This document shows positions 21,685-28,459 of a DNA stretch of 64,000 nt, piece by piece. The position numbers were made by a program, and so were the translations under genes. How positions within the stretch are numbered: position 1 is the stretch's first letter; the number at the start of each line of letters is the position of its first letter. This DNA is from an uncultured Oscillospiraceae bacterium (GTDB lineage Bacteria; Bacillota; Clostridia; Acetivibrionales; DTU013): contig CAZBEQ010000012.1 in assembly GCA_964490975.1 (NCBI GenBank), positions 1,559-65,558 of the forward strand, in the 5' to 3' direction. Below the pieces are notes generated by a model. That model had not been told where the DNA came from. It made no database searches and saw nothing but the letters and a program-made list of their open reading frames with translations.

Positions 21685-24102
21685 ATGCAATGGTTTAAAA
21701 ATTTGAAAATCGCAGCCAAACTGTTGATTGGCTTCATAATCGTAGCTATTATTGCAGCTTTTGTCGGAATTATTGGCATAGTAAATATCAATAATATTAA
21801 TGAAGCTGACACAGAGTTATATCAACTTGATACACTTGGCATTCAGTATGTAAGTGTTGCTTCACATGATTTTCAAAGACTGAGATACAACACACTTATG
21901 ATAACTGTTGTAGATGATCCCACAACACGTGAAGAAACTATCAAAACGGTTAATAATCTGTTACTTAGCATTGAAGAAGCTTTAAACAACTACAACAAAT
22001 ACTGTATCACAGATGAAGCTGACCAGGCAGCTAGTGATCTGGTAATAAGTCAATGGGGACAGTACCGTGCTTATATTCAACAGTATCAGGATTTGATCAA
22101 TGCTAATAAGTTTGATGATGCGAGAAAGATTATAATAGTTGATTCTGATTCAACTGGAGATGATTTGAGAGAAACGCTTAAAAGTATAACGACACAAAAA
22201 ACCACCGATGCTAAAAATACGTCAGAATCAAATAATAATAATGCCCGGCAAGCTGTTCTACTGATGATTATTGTGATTGCTGCTGGAGCTGTATCGGCAA
22301 TAATACTTGGAATAATTATATCCAGAATTATAAGCAAGCCGATCAATAAAATGGTCGATGCTATGGATAGAATTGCCAATGGAGATGTCGAAGTAAGTAT
22401 TGACATAGATACAAAAGAAGAGATTGGTGATCTGGCTAGTTCATGCAGAAAGACTACCGATTCAATAAGGCTATTGATACAGGAAGCAAACAAACTGACG
22501 AATGCGGCAGTGGAAGGACAACTTTCAGTCAGAGGAGATGTAGCCCAACTCAAAGGAGGATATAGAGACATCGTCAATGGTGTTAATAATACACTTGATG
22601 CTATTAATAAACCATTTATCGAATCTGAAACGGTTCTTGGAAAAATTGCTTTAAACGACTATACCCTTCAGATGACCGGACAATACAAAGGATATTTTGA
22701 AAAATTTGCAAAAATAATTAACGATGTGCGCACAAGACTGTTAAGCGTACAGGATGCATTTGAACGTGTCGGGAAAGGCGATGCCAGCAGATTGGCAGAG
22801 TTCGAGAAGGCAGGAAAACGATCAGAGAATGACAGGCTTATACCGGCTTGTATATCTGCTCTGAAGTCAATCAATGGTATCATTGCCGAAACCGGTAAAA
22901 TAGCCGATGCTGCAGCCAATGGCAATTTAAGTGTCAGGGGCGACAAGGATGCTTTTGAAGGCGGATACAAGGATATCATAGCAGGCTTTAACAGGACATT
23001 GGATACAATAGCAGAACCGGTGAGCGAATTGTCAGGTGTCATGGCGAGACTTGCTAATAACGATTTGACATTAGGTATGCAGGGCGAATATAAAGGCGAG
23101 TTTGCTAAAATGAAGGATGCTGTCAACTCAACGATCGATTCTTTAAATGTTGTAATGACTGAGATAAAATCAGCGTCAGAGCAGGTAGCATCCGGAGCCA
23201 AGCAGGTTTCCGACTCAAGCATGGCACTGTCACAGGGAGCGACCGAGCAGGCGAGCTCGATAGAAGAACTTACGGCTTCACTTGAAGAAATATCATCGCA
23301 AACTAAATTGAATGCAGATAATGCAGGCAAGGCTAATGAATTGGCTGAAAATGCAAGATCCAATGCTATAAAGGGCAATGATCAAATGAAAGATATGCTC
23401 AAGGCTATGGATGAAATCAATATTTCTTCAAGTAATATAAATAAGATAATAAAAGTAATAGACGACATAGCATTCCAAACAAATATCCTAGCTTTGAATG
23501 CAGCTGTTGAAGCAGCAAGAGCGGGACAGCACGGCAAGGGTTTTGCTGTTGTCGCTGAGGAGGTAAGGACTCTCGCGGCACGTTCCGCCAATGCAGCAAA
23601 AGAAACTACAGACCTGATTGAAGGTTCAATAAATAAGGTAGAGGCAGGTACAAAAATAGCAAAGGAAACTGCGGATGCATTGGGTAAAATTGTTTATGAG
23701 GTTGATAAGGCGGCCGATCTTGTAAACTCAATATCAACAGCATCAACTGAACAGGCAGCGGGTATCGAACAAATCAATCAAGGTATAATGCAGATATCTG
23801 AAGTAGTACAGACGAACTCAGCTACATCACAGGAAAGTGCGGCGGCAAGTGAAGAACTATCAAGCCAGGCAGAGACATTGAAGGACATTGTGGGGACGGT
23901 CAAGTTGAAAAAAGTAAACAGATCATATGGCGAGCTTGATGAAATCAGTCCAGAAGTCCTCAAAATGCTCGAAAGCATGTCAGGAAAAAGGGTTAACAAC
24001 CATGACAGCTTTAACAGTACAAAATTTGCAGGTAAAAAAAATAGCGAGCAAGTAAGAGATAAAAAGATAGCTCTTAGTGATAAGGAATTCGGAAAGTATT
24101 AA
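21685..24102 (+). CDS. Methyl-accepting chemotaxis protein with a duplicated HAMP-containing module
   Basis: Start at the ATG at 21685 (AAAGGAG RBS). N-terminal sensor flanked by two TM helices. A duplicated module of about 136 aa is present (..[34 protein letters not shown].. and ..[34 protein letters not shown]..). The C-terminal MCP signalling domain reads [34 protein letters not shown]. Confidence 0.9.
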
Positions 24103-24134
24103 TATCAAAACGATACACTTATATGATGCGAAGC

Positions 24135-24162
24135 AGGGAGCTTTTTAGCTCCCTTTCTTTTT
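24135..24162 (+). terminator. Rho-independent terminator after the MCP gene
   Basis: AGGGAGCT (24135-24142), a TTTT loop and AGCTCCCT (24147-24154), followed by TTCTTTTT. Confidence 0.8.
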
Positions 24163-24258
24163 GCTCAATACAGGCTGGATTTCCGCTGATTTTATAAGTA
24201 AGAGATTTAATTTGATGAAAACTATGATATCATAAAAACATGGAAAGAAGGAGGTAGT

Positions 24259-24609
24259 ATGACACATAGTCACGAAGCGTTTTTAATGACTGTTGTAAAT
24301 AATATTGAGGCAGATTTGATCGAAGCGATCCTGAAAAATGATGATATCCCGGTTTTGCGCAAATACCGGGAGGCTGGAGGCTACCTTACCGTTTTCATGG
24401 GCGATACTATATACGGTATAGACTTATATGTGCCGGATAAGCTGCTGGATAAGGCCAACGAGTTGATCGAGACAAGCAGGAGCGCGTCTAGTGATGAGCA
24501 GTTCCCGGATAATGTGGAACAGGATGCTCCCGTTGAAGGGCTGGATAATGCAGAACGGGATAAAGATGATAACGACAGCAGCGATCCCAAGCGAGGAGAT
24601 GCCAGATGA
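24259..24609 (+). CDS. DUF2007-like (putative signal-transducing) small protein with an acidic tail
   Basis: 116 aa with a GGAGG RBS. The core ..ADLIEAILKNDDIPV..... resembles the DUF2007 fold family. The C-terminus is Asp/Glu-rich. Confidence 0.55.
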   Translation: MTHSHEAFLMTVVNNIEADLIEAILKNDDIPVLRKYREAGGYLTVFMGDTIYGIDLYVPDKLLDKANELIETSRSASSDEQFPDNVEQDAPVEGLDNAERDKDDNDSSDPKRGDAR

Positions 24610-25094
24610 ATGATACCGGCAGGCCATCCAGACTGGCGAAGGCAGGTAAAATCATCTGGAGCATTCTTTTTGTACTATACCTCGCATTACTAGTGTACCT
24701 TACAATGTACAGCCGATATTATGGACGCGGATATGATCACCGCAGTATGAACTTTGTTCCATTAAGGACAATCACACAATATTTGAATGCAAACATCAAC
24801 AGGAACATAATAGTTACTAATCTGCTTGGAAACATAGCAGCATTTATGCCTATGGGTTTTTTGCTGCCATTGGTATCAAAAAAATTCAACGGATTCTTCA
24901 AAACTGTATTGCTATCGGCAGGATTCTCGTTTGTGATTGAAACTGTCCAATATATACTTGCGGTAGGTGCTGCAGACATTGACGATCTGATCCTCAATAC
25001 CGCTGGCGCTATAATTGGCTTTTTGATATTCTTACTATTCAGACTTGTCTTCAATTTAGCATCGTACAAAGATAATAAACATAATCGCACATAA
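24606..25094 (+). CDS. VanZ-family membrane protein
   Basis: 162 aa with a 4-nt overlap with the upstream gene. Motifs NFVPLRTI...NLLGNIAAFMPMGFLLP...ETVQY....G..DIDDLILNT are typical of the VanZ-like family. Confidence 0.85.
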   Translation: MNDTGRPSRLAKAGKIIWSILFVLYLALLVYLTMYSRYYGRGYDHRSMNFVPLRTITQYLNANINRNIIVTNLLGNIAAFMPMGFLLPLVSKKFNGFFKTVLLSAGFSFVIETVQYILAVGAADIDDLILNTAGAIIGFLIFLLFRLVFNLASYKDNKHNRT

Positions 25095-25118
25095 TTTCAA
25101 TTAGAAATGGGCAATATT

Positions 25119-25147
25119 TTGTATGATTAAGTGCGAAATGATATAAT
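25119..25147 (+). promoter_or_regulatory. Sigma-A-type promoter of the Phd-Uma2 fusion gene
   Basis: TTGTAT (25119-25124), a 17-nt spacer and TATAAT (25142-25147), 20 nt upstream of the ATG. Confidence 0.55.
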
Positions 25148-25166
25148 ATTTTTGGAGGTACATTTT

Positions 25167-25934
25167 ATGGATAAGTTAAAATACCAGGAAGGCGTTGTTG
25201 TAACTGCTACAGGGCTTAAGCAGAATCTGGGCAAATATATGGATCTGGTCGAACAGCAAAATGATGTTGTAATTACAAAAAACGGAGCAAAGATTGCGAG
25301 GTTGACTCCATATATAACGGATATCGAACAATATTTCACCGTCAGAGAAAAGGCACTGGACTACCAGTATGGCGGGAAAAAGGTTTCATATGAAGAATTC
25401 ATGTCGATATATGAAAACAGCACACTGAGGATGGAATACATCAATGGCGAGATATATCTGCTGGGCTCTCCGACCATTGGCCATCAGGATATTCTTGGAA
25501 GGCTCTATTTGATTTTTAATAAATATTTTGAAGGAAAGAAATGCAGGGTTTTTCTTGCTCCTTTCGATGCCCATTTCTGGAAGAAGGATTTCAAGGAGCC
25601 TGATGTGATGCAGCCGGATGTACTTGTAGCATGCGACCTGGAGGGCAATGTCATCGAAAAGGGGAAATACATGGGTACGCCGTCACTGGTGATCGAGATA
25701 CTGTCCGAAAGCACACGCACAAAAGATATGGTCGACAAGCTGAACACATATATGCTTTCCGGAGTAAAGGAATATTGGGTCATAGATACAAAGCAGGAAA
25801 TGATCATGATATATGATTTTGCTGACCGTGGTATCGATTATCTGAAGCTTTACAATAAGGGTGATACAGCGGCTTCAATAGCTTTCAACGGCTTGTCTGC
25901 AGACGTCGCTGCTTTGTTCAGTGATTTGTTGTAA
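25167..25934 (+). CDS. Fusion protein: N-terminal Phd/YefM-antitoxin-like domain and C-terminal Uma2-family (DUF820) PD-(D/E)xK endonuclease domain
   Basis: Start re-set to the ATG at 25167 (GGAGGT RBS). Residues ~5-60, VVTATGLKQNLGKYMDLVEQQNDVVITKNGAKIARLTPY, fit the Phd/YefM pattern. The rest (MEYINGEIYLLGSPTIGHQDI...PDVLVACD...PSLVIEILSESTRTKD...K...Y..GVKEYWVID) fits Uma2. Confidence 0.75.
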   Translation: MDKLKYQEGVVVTATGLKQNLGKYMDLVEQQNDVVITKNGAKIARLTPYITDIEQYFTVREKALDYQYGGKKVSYEEFMSIYENSTLRMEYINGEIYLLGSPTIGHQDILGRLYLIFNKYFEGKKCRVFLAPFDAHFWKKDFKEPDVMQPDVLVACDLEGNVIEKGKYMGTPSLVIEILSESTRTKDMVDKLNTYMLSGVKEYWVIDTKQEMIMIYDFADRGIDYLKLYNKGDTAASIAFNGLSADVAALFSDLL

Positions 25935-26029
25935 AGCAAAATTAAGTTAGTGGGAACAAATCAATGATCTCAAATGTCAAAAGATATATGAACCAGTACC
26001 CATATATCTTTCTGTTTGGAGGGGATCCC

Positions 26030-26533
26030 ATGAGGTCTGTAAGTAAAACAATTTTATGTATCATTGCTGTTTTCATGTCTTTGCCTGCAGCGGCCTATGC
26101 AAACTCTTCGTGGCATTGGGTCACTGTGAGCCCGATGACTGTATTCCCACTGGCGGTTATTTTGACGCTGTTGATAGAAACGTACTCAGTTACGAAATTT
26201 GGAAAGGTTGATAATCATAAAAGAGCATTAATTGTAATAGGCTTTGCAAATCTACTTTCGTTCCTTGCACCATATCTCGAAAGGGCTAACCGTTTTACAG
26301 CTGTAACTGGTGGGTTCTCACTGTCAGCCGCCTTCAACAAGGGACCATATTATATTGTTTTCTCCGGGTCTTTGTTGCTTACAGTCATAGTTGAACTGCC
26401 GGTAGTGTTTTTCCTTCTCAGGAAAAACACCATGAACAGACGAAATCTTATTCTGTCTATAATACTATCGAATATTGTAACAACAAGTCTTGTTGCAGTC
26501 ATGGAACGCCTTATCTGCATCGGCAGATGGTAA
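26030..26533 (+). CDS. Hypothetical multi-pass membrane protein with signal peptide
   Basis: Start re-set to the ATG at 26030 (GGAGGGG RBS). MRSVSKTILCIIAVFMSLPAAAYA signal-like N-terminus followed by about 4 TM helices. Confidence 0.5.
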   Translation: MRSVSKTILCIIAVFMSLPAAAYANSSWHWVTVSPMTVFPLAVILTLLIETYSVTKFGKVDNHKRALIVIGFANLLSFLAPYLERANRFTAVTGGFSLSAAFNKGPYYIVFSGSLLLTVIVELPVVFFLLRKNTMNRRNLILSIILSNIVTTSLVAVMERLICIGRW

Positions 26534-26671
26534 TGCCGATTTGATTGAGACTGAAACACATCACTAATATCCTAAATTGCAAAAAAATAAAAAATATGGA
26601 ACTTTAAAGCAACTCCTCCCGTCTGATTATATATAGAGAGAGAAATAAATATAAAAGGGAGGAAACAAAAA

Positions 26672-28459
26672 ATGAAAAAGAAAGGAAAGGCTTTACTGGC
26701 AGTAATTATGTGTGCAGCTATGGCATTTGCTATGACAGCATGCGGAGGCTCGCAAAAAAGTCCATCTACAGAGGCTTTGCGTTCAAATGAAAGTAACGTG
26801 AATTATTCCATGACAGAAGAACAGGAAATGGAAACACCTGCTGAAGCGCCGGCAGAAACACCGGCAGAAACACCTGCAGAAACACCTGCTGAAGCACTGG
26901 CAGAAGCACCGGCAGTGACGGCACCTGCGGAAACACCAGCACCTGAACTGATGAATGCACCTATGGGGGAAGTCGACAGGTTGATGAAGGTGGCAGCAGA
27001 CACAACCATGGCAGATGGAACAGCTCCTGATTTAATAACAAATGAAACGGAATTCAATACTGAAGAGTACAAAACCATAGAAGAGAACCGTTTGCAGAAA
27101 GTCAGCATGTCACCGCTTTCCACTTTTTCGATAGATGTCGACACTGCATCCTACAGCAATATGAGGCGCTATCTTGAGAATGGACAGCAGCCGCCGGCGG
27201 ATGCAGTCAGGATCGAAGAGCTGATAAATTATTTTTCTTATGATCTTCCTGAACCGGACGGTAACGTGCCGTTTTCTGTGACGACAGAGCTGGCAAAATG
27301 TCCGTGGAACGAGGACAATTACCTAGCTATGGTAGCACTCCAGGGGAAGACTGTTGACAATAAGGAACTTCCAAAGTCCAATCTGGTATTCCTGCTCGAT
27401 GTCTCCGGTTCCATGGATGAGCCGATGAAGCTGCCATTGCTGAAGTCTTCATTCAAGCTTCTGGTTGAACAGCTTGGCGAGAACGACAAGGTTTCGATCG
27501 TTGTATATGCAGGAGCTTCAGGTGTTATTCTCGAAGGTGCCCACGGTGATGAGAAGGAAATGATACTTGAGGCACTGGATGGACTTGAGGCAGGAGGCTC
27601 CACGGCAGGCGGCGAAGGAATACAGCTTGCATATAGGATAGTCAGGGATAACTTTATCACCGGTGGGAACAACCGCGTGATATTAGCCACTGACGGCGAT
27701 TTCAATGTCGGTGTCAGTAGCGAGGGCGAACTGACCAGAATGATAGAGAAAAAGAGAAAGGAAGGAATCTTTCTTAGTGTACTTGGTTTCGGTACAGGAA
27801 ACATAAAGGACAACAAGATGGAAGCGCTGGCCGACAAGGGAAATGGCAACTACGCATATATTGACAGCCTTATGGAGGCGAAAAAAGTCATGGTCAGTGA
27901 AATGGGAGCTACTCTTCTGACGATAGCCAAGGATGTGAAGATACAGGTCGAATTCAATCCTGCAAAGGTGAAGGAATACCGCCTGGCCGGCTATGACAAC
28001 CGAATGCTGCGCAATGAGGATTTTGATGATGATACCAGGGATGCGGGAGAGATAGGAGCCGGTCATAATGTCATTGCTTTCTATGAGGTGGTGCCTTGCA
28101 GGAACGGTGAGTATATAGAAAAATCTCAATTAAAGTATCAGTCAGCTGATGCTCGGCAGGAGTGGGAGAATGAATGGATGGAAGTAAGGCTCCGTTATAA
28201 GGAACCGAACTCCGATGTTAGTGAGAAAAAAGTACATACTATTACAGACCAAAATATCACAAATGATCCGTCGGATAATTTTGTATTCGCATCAGCAGTT
28301 GCCGAATTCGGACTGCTTTTACGAGACTCGCAGTATAAAGGAATAGCTTCCTTTGATAGTGTAAAAGGACGAGCTGAGAGTTCGATCGGCAATGATGCCG
28401 GGGAATACAGGAGTAATTTCCTGGAGCTTGTTGATAAAGCAAAAAGTATAATGGATTGA
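26672..28459 (+). CDS. von Willebrand factor type A domain lipoprotein (YfbK-like)
   Basis: 595 aa. Lipobox AFAMTAC, a Pro/Ala/Glu/Thr linker, and a vWA MIDAS motif LVFLLDVSGSM with later ATDGDFNVG. The C-terminal extension is typical of YfbK-type proteins. Confidence 0.85.
   Translation: MKKKGKALLAVIMCAAMAFAMTACGGSQKSPSTEALRSNESNVNYSMTEEQEMETPAEAPAETPAETPAETPAEALAEAPAVTAPAETPAPELMNAPMGEVDRLMKVAADTTMADGTAPDLITNETEFNTEEYKTIEENRLQKVSMSPLSTFSIDVDTASYSNMRRYLENGQQPPADAVRIEELINYFSYDLPEPDGNVPFSVTTELAKCPWNEDNYLAMVALQGKTVDNKELPKSNLVFLLDVSGSMDEPMKLPLLKSSFKLLVEQLGENDKVSIVVYAGASGVILEGAHGDEKEMILEALDGLEAGGSTAGGEGIQLAYRIVRDNFITGGNNRVILATDGDFNVGVSSEGELTRMIEKKRKEGIFLSVLGFGTGNIKDNKMEALADKGNGNYAYIDSLMEAKKVMVSEMGATLLTIAKDVKIQVEFNPAKVKEYRLAGYDNRMLRNEDFDDDTRDAGEIGAGHNVIAFYEVVPCRNGEYIEKSQLKYQSADARQEWENEWMEVRLRYKEPNSDVSEKKVHTITDQNITNDPSDNFVFASAVAEFGLLLRDSQYKGIASFDSVKGRAESSIGNDAGEYRSNFLELVDKAKSIMD
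26831..26944 (+). repeat. Imperfect 12-bp tandem repeats encoding (PAET/PAEA)n linker
   Basis: GAAACACCTGCT/GAAGCGCCGGCA/GAAACACCGGCA/GAAACACCTGCA... encodes ETPAEAPAETPAETPAETPAEALAEAPAVTAPAETPAP. Confidence 0.9.

Follow-up and report, generated by a model that had tools for sequence, protein, structure and literature searches.

The gene at positions 25167..25934 (+ strand) of a 64,000-nucleotide stretch of contig CAZBEQ010000012.1, from an uncultured Oscillospiraceae bacterium (the whole stretch is called the window here, and its first letter is position 1), encodes a polypeptide of 255 amino acids (aa) in which a Phd/YefM-type antitoxin domain is joined to a Uma2 domain of the PD-(D/E)xK nuclease type. 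Judged from sequence, this fusion is probably a single-chain nuclease that represses its own gene through the antitoxin-derived module, with no separate antitoxin. The protein carries both domains and the complete catalytic signature, its gene is solitary and belongs to a wide family, and the promoters of that family bear specific palindromes that are phased with the promoter elements.

What could be the use of half an antitoxin attached to a nuclease? Most likely, the protein switches off its own gene. Its N-terminal Phd/YefM-fold domain would dimerise and bind GTAC-core palindromes lying over its own promoter, in the same placement as that used by the YefM/Phd/Axe antitoxins on their operons, and this binding would keep the expression of the attached Uma2 nuclease low. 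Uma2, with its full predicted active site, would then represent the 'payload', a 'solo toxin' nuclease of the selfish or defence type, and the fusion would have descended from a type II antitoxin whose toxin-binding tail was replaced by the nuclease itself.

A palindrome phased with the promoters of the family

Promoters and genomic context were studied in species-representative genomes, where 126 stretches proved to be relatives; the best 80 of these form the loci discussed here. When the 110 nt upstream of the family genes were aligned on their start codons, an 8-bp GTAC-core palindrome, TCGTACGA, was found repeated in the promoters between AT-rich flanks (consensus wwATCGTACGAtat), along with its close variants TCGCACGA, TCGTGCGA, TCATACGA (found 7 times) and CCGTACGA. 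Across 79 family promoters, 69 exact and 64 one-mismatch copies of TCGTACGA amount to 1.68 per 150 nt, compared with 0.024 in the rest of the same 769 kb. The 150-nt family promoter stretches hold 69 of the 78 exact copies present in these 769 kb, and most of the others also lie at family promoters, where the open reading frame (ORF) had been over-extended, mis-started or missed by the ORF caller.

Measured from the independently located centre of the -10 box, the sites fall into three classes: +8..+11, at the start of transcription and directly next to the ribosome-binding site GAGGTG; -12..-9, within the promoter spacer, the commonest class with 45 sites across 74 scored promoters; and -44/-36, just upstream of the -35 box. 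At least one site is present in 73 of the 74 promoters and all three classes in 34. Distances between sites show maxima at 21 bp and 29-32 bp, or about two and three turns of the helix. To all appearances, this is the layout of a repressor operator; the YefM operator likewise consists of paired palindromes, with a TGTACA core, placed over the promoter (PMC1802561). As far as our literature searches show, the operator of the fusion family is undescribed.

Because the sites lie in the gene's own promoter and are phased with -35, -10 and +1, they point to autorepression rather than to genomic targeting. This bears on one of three interpretations offered in the first-pass annotation of this DNA, namely that the N-terminal part targets the nuclease to DNA: the domain is very probably a DNA binder, but the location of its putative sites speaks for autorepression and not for targets around the genome. 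A modular site-specific endonuclease, in which the Phd-fold domain would deliver Uma2 to TCGTACGA-type cleavage targets, for example in foreign DNA, is accordingly given little credence and strikes us as very unlikely. Such an enzyme would indeed be expected to tether a DNA-binding domain to a PD-(D/E)xK domain with an intact site and, as with any modular specificity, to have that DNA-binding domain swapped among relatives, both of which are seen. However, nearly all exact sites in the 769 kb lie in the family's own promoters at fixed positions, so that the enzyme would chiefly attack its own gene, a methyltransferase or some other protective partner is not found nearby, and the same sites serve a Phd-fold/PIN toxin-antitoxin module that is not a nuclease fusion.

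Weaker hints of a link between domain and operator may come from genes in which both have changed. Two fusion genes with ITKNNKK in place of ITKNGKK carry CCGAACGA or TTGAACG sites instead, and a divergent Phd-Uma2 gene (L080:5176-5919) has different repeats, with CTAAGAT occurring three times. Upstream of the more divergent Phd-Uma2 protein P0126 (44-45% identity), no TCGTACGA was found, only AT-rich inverted repeats.

Two other roles for the palindrome were considered and rejected. In three homologues (L031:1238, L039:6190 and L080:6190), V-S-Y-E-E is encoded by GTA TCG TAC GAA/G, so that a perfect TCGTACGA falls inside the gene; this is probably chance, the number being about what codon usage would give, and an intragenic operator was dismissed. 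A mobile element with terminal repeats was dismissed as well, the palindrome occurring upstream of the gene and never downstream.

The same putative operator in a two-gene module

In a reverse search, metagenomes were scanned for two perfect sites 12-14 nt apart. Among the 80 stretches recovered were one further fusion gene (L141) and, on metagenome contigs, four copies of a two-gene module (L089, L100, L109:2907-3626 and L162). The first gene of the module encodes a Phd-fold antitoxin of 71 aa, which is 56% identical to aa 12-49 of the fusion and whose stop codon overlaps the start of a PIN_3 toxin gene; Uma2 is not present there. In the module, one AATCGTACGATT site lies just upstream of the -35 box (TTGCTA) and a second in the spacer that precedes TATAAT. 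Of the encoded parts, fusion and module loci share the DNA-binding domain only, and the operator therefore appears to follow that domain. It would seem that repressor domains of antitoxins are put to new use, one and the same pair of domain and operator occurring both in a Phd-fold/PIN pair and in a nuclease fusion. The further proposal of the first-pass annotation, an antitoxin that has captured a nuclease, is a fair description in evolutionary terms, given a PIN module with a related domain (at that same identity) and the same operator. At one of these loci, a 552-aa ORF (L109:3998-5656, minus strand) adjoins the module.

The N-terminal domain and the connector

The Phd/YefM-fold domain, with a predicted function in DNA binding and dimerisation, spans aa 9-49 (25191..25313, + strand) and was delimited by Pfam, TIGRFAM, DSSP and fold matches. 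With PF02604 (PhdYeFM), aa 11-49 score 28.8 bits (E=1e-6), just below the gathering threshold of 29.8, and match profile positions 3-42 of 74 only, positions 43-74 being unmatched; with the NCBIfam model TIGR01552 (phd_fam), the score of 28.9 bits exceeds the cutoff of 20.8. Both precomputed Pfam domains, PF02604 and PF05685, are present in all of the best 120 of 1,287 homologues. A fold search was required because the profile of the N-domain family gave weak matches only to sequences in the PDB (3k6q, E=0.003). A first AlphaFold2 (AF2) run on a shallow alignment of 74-82% identity returned a poor model with a predicted local distance difference test score (pLDDT) of 69, whereas the final run, to which representatives of 34-45% identity had been added (alignment A3), reached a pLDDT of 86.3 and a predicted TM score (pTM) of 0.70.

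In this model, the N-domain (pLDDT 78-90) forms strand-helix-helix-strand-strand over aa 10-46 according to DSSP. Foldseek matched it in the PDB to the N-domains of Phd-fold antitoxins with probability 1.0 and a root-mean-square deviation (rmsd) of 0.7-1.6 Å over 38-42 residues; the matches comprise VapB46 (6jqy), which is the best at 0.7-1.0 Å, Phd (3hs2/4zlx), the DNA-bound 4zm0/4zm2, 2odk, RelB2 (3g5o) and Phd-Doc (3k33). Sequence and model thus identify the domain, provisionally, as the DNA-binding/dimerisation half of the antitoxin fold, from which the toxin-binding C-terminal tail is absent. Two of its lysines, K18 and K38, hardly vary in the close family and align with R10 and R31 of YefM, which are needed for operator binding (PMC4803016); the hhalign comparison of the N-domain profile with one E. 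coli YefM sequence was in itself uninformative (probability 0.9%) and served for the alignment register only.

The fusion of a Phd/YefM domain with Uma2, first claimed from the letters of the sequence alone, is thereby borne out by hidden Markov models (PF05685 and TIGR01552, with PF02604 just below gathering) and by fold matches. The possibility that the N-terminal extension is not Phd-like, which the first-pass annotation had itself named, fails on both kinds of evidence.

Between the two domains lies a connector (aa 50-73, 25314..25385, + strand; ITDIEQYFTVREKALDYQYGGKKV), delimited by conservation, pLDDT and comparison with relatives. Its aa 53-66 have a pLDDT <50 in the monomer model. The motif V-R-E-x-A-x-x-Y ... 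K-x-[ST]-Y-x-[ED]-[FY] found before the Uma2 core is present also in Xre-fused, HTH_17/MerR, PIN and tandem-Uma2 relatives, and since it precedes Uma2 in relatives with other N-domains, aa 58-75 are better regarded as an extension of Uma2 than as the missing half of Phd. Over 109 family members, mean column conservation, expressed as the share of sequences with the commonest residue, reaches 0.82 in the connector, compared with 0.77 in the Phd core and 0.74 in Uma2.

Could the N-terminal part nevertheless act as an antitoxin? In a one-polypeptide toxin-antitoxin, the Phd-like domain or the connector would keep the active site of Uma2 blocked, either in cis or, within an oligomer, in trans, until a trigger frees the nuclease; a phage protein, proteolytic cleavage of the connector or titration by DNA might play this part. 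We regard this as unlikely, even though it can coexist with autorepression. In its favour, a solo-toxin role has been proposed for Uma2 (PMC2701414), the nuclease matches the phage-defence candidate PDC-S03 of PADLOC, and the connector is no less conserved than the two domains, yet is modelled with low confidence, which fits folding on the surface of a partner. On the other hand, the neutralising C-terminal tail of Phd/YefM is absent, the linkers of P0173, P0184, P0248 and P0255 are long and variable, unrelated DNA-binding domains are swapped in among relatives, which argues against a specific inhibitory interface, and neither the pTM of the model nor its low-confidence connector points to a docked N-domain. 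The self-inhibited nuclease suggested in the first-pass annotation is weakened as far as the analogy with antitoxin neutralisation goes, because it is precisely the toxin-neutralising tail of Phd that is missing.

The Uma2 domain

The Uma2 (COG4636/DUF820) domain, a predicted PD-(D/E)xK nuclease, extends over aa 74-251 (25386..25919, + strand) by Pfam and by sequence and fold matches in the PDB. PF05685 matches aa 76-247 over profile positions 2-171 of 172 (E=4.5e-27, 95.1 bits against a gathering threshold of 27), and the domain of the AF2 model (pLDDT >89) is matched by Foldseek to 6okh (E=1e-15, TM 0.89), 9y1l, 3ot2 and 1wdj, the TM scores of this predicted model being 0.77-0.89 when normalised to the target. 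All the motifs read by eye at the outset, EYINGE, SP..H, PDVLV, LVIEILSEST and GVKEYWVID, are present.

The predicted catalytic set consists of H106 (25482-84), D151 (25617-19), E177 (25695-97) and K191 (25737-39), all on the + strand and in invariant columns: H106, P150-D151, E177-I-L-S and K191 do not vary among 47 sequences of 34-82% identity, nor among the 109 family members. Across the 47 sequences, that is down to 34% identity, the full invariant set is E90, G94, P102, H106, Q107, C126, P132, P150, D151, C156, D157, Y168, P172, E177, S180, K191, E202 and S237. Feder and Bujnicki described the active site of COG4636 as H...PD...EXX...K with a migrated lysine (PMC551604), and because H106/D151/E177/K191 reproduce this site, the nuclease site looks intact. 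Two of the invariant residues, C126 (25542-25544, KKC-RVF) and C156 (25632-25634, LVA-C-D; five residues past the catalytic D151), are constant in the Phd-, Xre-, PIN- and tandem-Uma2 relatives of the Bacillota clade and are not in the solved Uma2 proteins 9y1l and 6okh; in these anaerobes, they might make up a metal site or act as a redox switch.

A full-text literature search returned no functional study of Uma2, no nuclease activity for any Uma2 protein and no mention of a Phd-Uma2 fusion, in agreement with the earlier remark that no characterisation of this architecture was known; the Uma2 structures in the PDB are structural-genomics deposits. Might the protein then be a plain transcription factor, in which Uma2 is free of catalysis and serves oligomerisation or ligand sensing? 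The operator architecture would suit such a protein, as would the lack of any Uma2 nuclease activity in the literature searched. But H106, D151, E177 and K191 do not vary even between clusters of only 34-45% identity, and the sites keep to the promoters of the family itself, leaving no regulon to control, so that we hold this to be highly improbable.

What is written about Uma2 otherwise suits an autorepressed nuclease. The family has been called a 'likely solo toxin' forming cassettes of paralogues (PMC2701414), has been viewed as a selfish element and accounts for >2% of Gloeobacter genes (PMC551604). The model PDLC04832 of PDC-S03 matches the Uma2 part of the fusion (E=1.8e-53, aa 71-252 to positions 7-187 of 188) and leaves out the N-domain; autorepression of the nuclease fits this match too. 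A defence-island context is not seen, the window neighbours including no defence genes and the other loci holding mostly housekeeping genes and few toxin-antitoxin genes.

Breadth of the family and sister fusions

A word-indexed search gave the 1,287 homologues, of which the best 120 have 252-263 aa and 74-82% identity and are in many cases named 'Phd/YefM family antitoxin' by NCBI and JGI. An exhaustive search of representatives at 50% identity yielded 10,075 matches at E<=1e-3; a model of the family N-terminus detects the N-domain in 50 of the best 150 representatives, ~36 of them full length. The architecture is thus visible and automatically annotated in databases, and hence not new to them, while being uncharacterised in the literature searched. 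Its public name, 'type II toxin-antitoxin system Phd/YefM family antitoxin', is misleading because there is neither a toxin partner nor a neutralising tail.

The family extends across Clostridia, and the 80 loci come from Oscillospiraceae, Hungateiclostridiaceae, Ruminiclostridium, Halanaerobiales, Syntrophomonas, Thermincola, Desulfitobacterium, Dethiobacter and Formimonas, with several fusion copies in some genomes. Two family members sit on short contigs in non-Bacillota bins, a Desulfovibrionaceae (L031) and a Bacteroidales (L037) metagenome-assembled genome, for which a binning error is more likely than horizontal transfer. In phage and plasmid collections, Uma2-only relatives are present and no full-length fusion was found.

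The fusion gene usually stands alone between unrelated genes. A conserved partner gene was looked for by clustering the ORFs within 6 kb at the 80 loci and was rejected, the recurrent clusters being only generic (ABC ATPase, 14 loci) or a matter of local synteny (VanZ, 5), and no methyltransferase is a conserved neighbour across loci. Tandem or nearby paralogues occur at 9 of the 80 loci and comprise Uma2-only proteins, one divergent Phd-Uma2 and two HTH_17/MerR-Uma2 fusions. A solitary gene with tandem paralogues fits the 'likely solo toxin' cassette pattern (PMC2701414). VanZ genes adjoin the fusion gene, upstream or downstream, in four other loci of the closest relatives (including L001, L004 and L008).

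The representatives further include many Xre (HTH_3)-Uma2 fusions, one PIN-Uma2 fusion and tandem Uma2-Uma2 proteins, and in the four relatives named above the long, variable linkers between DNA-binding domain and Uma2 are of low complexity. Sister Uma2 proteins with other DNA-binding N-domains (Xre HTH_3, HTH_17/MerR) at the same position appear to support the view that the N-domain serves autorepression. The proteins P0253 (337 aa) and P0145, P0148, P0162 and P0177 (435-493 aa) have a PIN_3 domain N-terminal to Uma2 or two complete Uma2 domains, each Uma2 domain being preceded by the VRE..Y...K.Y motif. Beside Phd-Uma2 genes, HTH_17/MerR-Uma2 fusions are found at L071:1187-1999 and L078:6124-6909 (minus strand), and the -10 box of the former is flanked by an inverted repeat of its own, TACCTGATATAA / TTATACCAGGTA. 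This suggests that other fusions of a DNA-binding domain with Uma2 are self-regulated too, via different operators.

A more elaborate scheme, in which the toxin acts as its own co-repressor in a one-gene addiction or abortive-infection switch, with inactive molecules parked on their own promoter and released as nuclease, seems to us decidedly unlikely. Phd-fold dimers would occupy three operators on one face of the DNA, ~21 and ~30 bp apart; dimerisation of Uma2 would bridge these dimers and so park the few molecules produced, inactive, on their own promoter; and cleavage of the connector, which is conserved yet unstructured, or competition by invading DNA would free the active nuclease. Were this so, the Xre-, MerR- and Phd-Uma2 fusions of Bacillota would constitute a new class of single-chain, DNA-tethered toxin systems and would for the first time open the very large Uma2 family to functional study.

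The gene and its operator-like sites in the window

The reading frame of the fusion in the ORF listing of the window starts at GTG 25131 and runs to 25934 (267 aa). We prefer the ATG at 25167, which gives 255 aa followed by TAA (25932-25934), because a Shine-Dalgarno sequence, GGAGG (25154..25158, + strand), ends 8 nt earlier and because 255 aa is the modal length of the homologues. Upstream, a -35 box TTGTAT (25119..25124) and a -10 box TATAAT (25142..25147), both on the + strand and, like the Shine-Dalgarno sequence, read directly from the DNA, are separated by 17 nt. The promoter and ribosome-binding site seen in the first-pass annotation are therefore there, but 'canonical' was too strong a word for the promoter: the -10 box is perfect, whereas the -35 box agrees with TTGACA at only 3 of 6 positions, which is why a consensus scan did not list it. 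That annotation was also right that no partner toxin gene adjoins: neither a toxin-like gene (Doc, YoeB, RelE, PIN etc.) nor a methyltransferase lies next to the fusion gene in the window. It is a single gene with its own promoter and not the pair of separate, co-transcribed proteins that makes up a two-gene type II toxin-antitoxin system.

Four operator-like sites can be discerned near this promoter. Site A, TCGTACAA, matches TCGTACGA at 7 of 8 positions and lies in the 3' end of the VanZ gene (25062..25069, + strand). Site B, TCGCACAT (25085..25092, + strand), overlaps the VanZ stop codon and holds the half-site TCGCAC, as in TCGCACGA of the closest relatives; the relatives L002, L004 and L007 carry ATCGCACGA at comparable positions. 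Site C, TCATACAA (6/8 match; 25119..25126, minus strand), lies over the -35 box, and site D, TCGCACTT (25129..25136, minus strand), lies in the -35/-10 spacer with its centre 12 bp upstream of the -10 centre, the family's commonest site position. Site A and 25118-25127, in the -35 region, form a 10-nt inverted repeat. The half-site TCGYAC occurs 20 times in the 64 kb, three of these within the 75 nt directly upstream of the gene and one of them in the promoter spacer. Residue 16 of the window protein is Gly (G16, 25212-25214), a position occupied by Glu in at least 90% of its close homologues (ITATELK); taken together with the degenerate operators, this may mean that the DNA-binding function of the window copy is drifting.

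Upstream of the fusion gene lie, in order, genes for a methyl-accepting chemotaxis protein, a DUF2007 protein and a VanZ-like protein, and downstream those for a membrane protein without family assignment, a vWA/YfbK lipoprotein and a LUD-domain protein. At 24259-25094, the DUF2007-like ORF (a weak match, 22.8 bits against a gathering threshold of 25.7) overlaps the start of the VanZ-family gene by 4 nt. The vWA/YfbK lipoprotein (26672-28459, + strand) has a low-complexity PAETPAETPAETPAE... repeat after a lipobox-like signal sequence in its N-terminal part (~26840-26940). An Rfam scan of 24000-27000 gave no match.

How firm is the case for autorepression?

Several points weigh against a nuclease that represses its own gene. 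Binding of these sites by the N-domain, repression through such binding, cleavage of nucleic acid by Uma2 and the biological role of the protein are all matters that we infer, and the palindromes could be bound by a host factor rather than by the fused domain. Since the 80 loci are relatives of one another, their site counts do not represent independent events, and the four copies of the two-gene module amount to about two independent examples. The search that recovered the module was unspecific, 75 of its 80 stretches being unrelated, mostly on G+C-rich contigs and probably due to chance, given how very large the collection is. The AF2 model is that of a monomer, so that domain-domain contacts in an oligomer fall outside it. 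The window copy itself is not the best representative of its family: its sites are degenerate (5-7/8 matches) with no perfect palindrome, it has no counterpart of the +1/Shine-Dalgarno site that is typical of the larger subgroup, and its autorepression may be weaker than that of the consensus family. Its surroundings (chemotaxis receptor, VanZ, vWA lipoprotein) are no defence island.

Comparison with known systems

Uma2/COG4636 is one of the largest bacterial families without known function, and the fusion clade, with its regulatory module and defined operator, offers a tractable entry to it. The fusion shares with Uma2/COG4636/DUF820 proteins (1wdj TT1808, 3ot2, 6okh and 9y1l) the full-length Pfam match, the fold and the H...PD...EXX...K site with its migrated lysine, and has in common with them solitary genes, paralogue cassettes and a reading as solo toxin or selfish element (PMC2701414, PMC551604). 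Unlike the solved proteins, it adds an N-terminal Phd-fold domain, the C126/C156 pair (not in 9y1l and 6okh) and a dedicated promoter/operator, and it comes from anaerobic Bacillota rather than from cyanobacteria or Thermus.

With the YefM/Phd/Axe autorepressors, the fusion has in common the N-terminal fold (the closest being that of VapB46 of M. tuberculosis, 6jqy), the profile match (above the cutoff with TIGR01552, just below it with PF02604) and the basic residues at the positions of YefM R10/R31. GTAC-core palindromes over the promoter are likewise shared with YefM, the core being TGTACA there (PMC1802561) and TCGTACGA in the fusion family. In contrast to these antitoxins, however, the fusion has neither a C-terminal toxin-binding tail nor a downstream toxin gene, its domain being covalently joined to a nuclease, and its family has three sites ~21 and ~30 bp apart, whereas YefM has two sites 12 bp apart. 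With the PIN_3 (VapC-like) module, the fusion shares a DNA-binding domain of 56% identity and the same AATCGTACGATT sites, but that module is bicistronic, with a 30-aa toxin-binding tail and a separate toxin, where the fusion has an in-frame Uma2 instead.

Two further kinds of system invite comparison. CapRel(SJ46) and EzeT are single-chain fused toxin-antitoxins, in which the antitoxin part is the neutralising element. The fusion resembles them in being one polypeptide composed of an antitoxin-derived part and a putatively toxic enzyme and encoded by a solitary gene, but it keeps only the repressor half of the antitoxin, and the enzyme classes differ. In systems governed by controller (C) proteins, a small dimeric DNA-binding module acting on palindromic promoter boxes controls the expression of a PD-(D/E)xK restriction endonuclease. 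The fusion differs from these in having no methyltransferase, in carrying its regulator fused to the nuclease and in using a Phd fold rather than an Xre-type helix-turn-helix (HTH), although Xre-Uma2 fusions do exist among its relatives.

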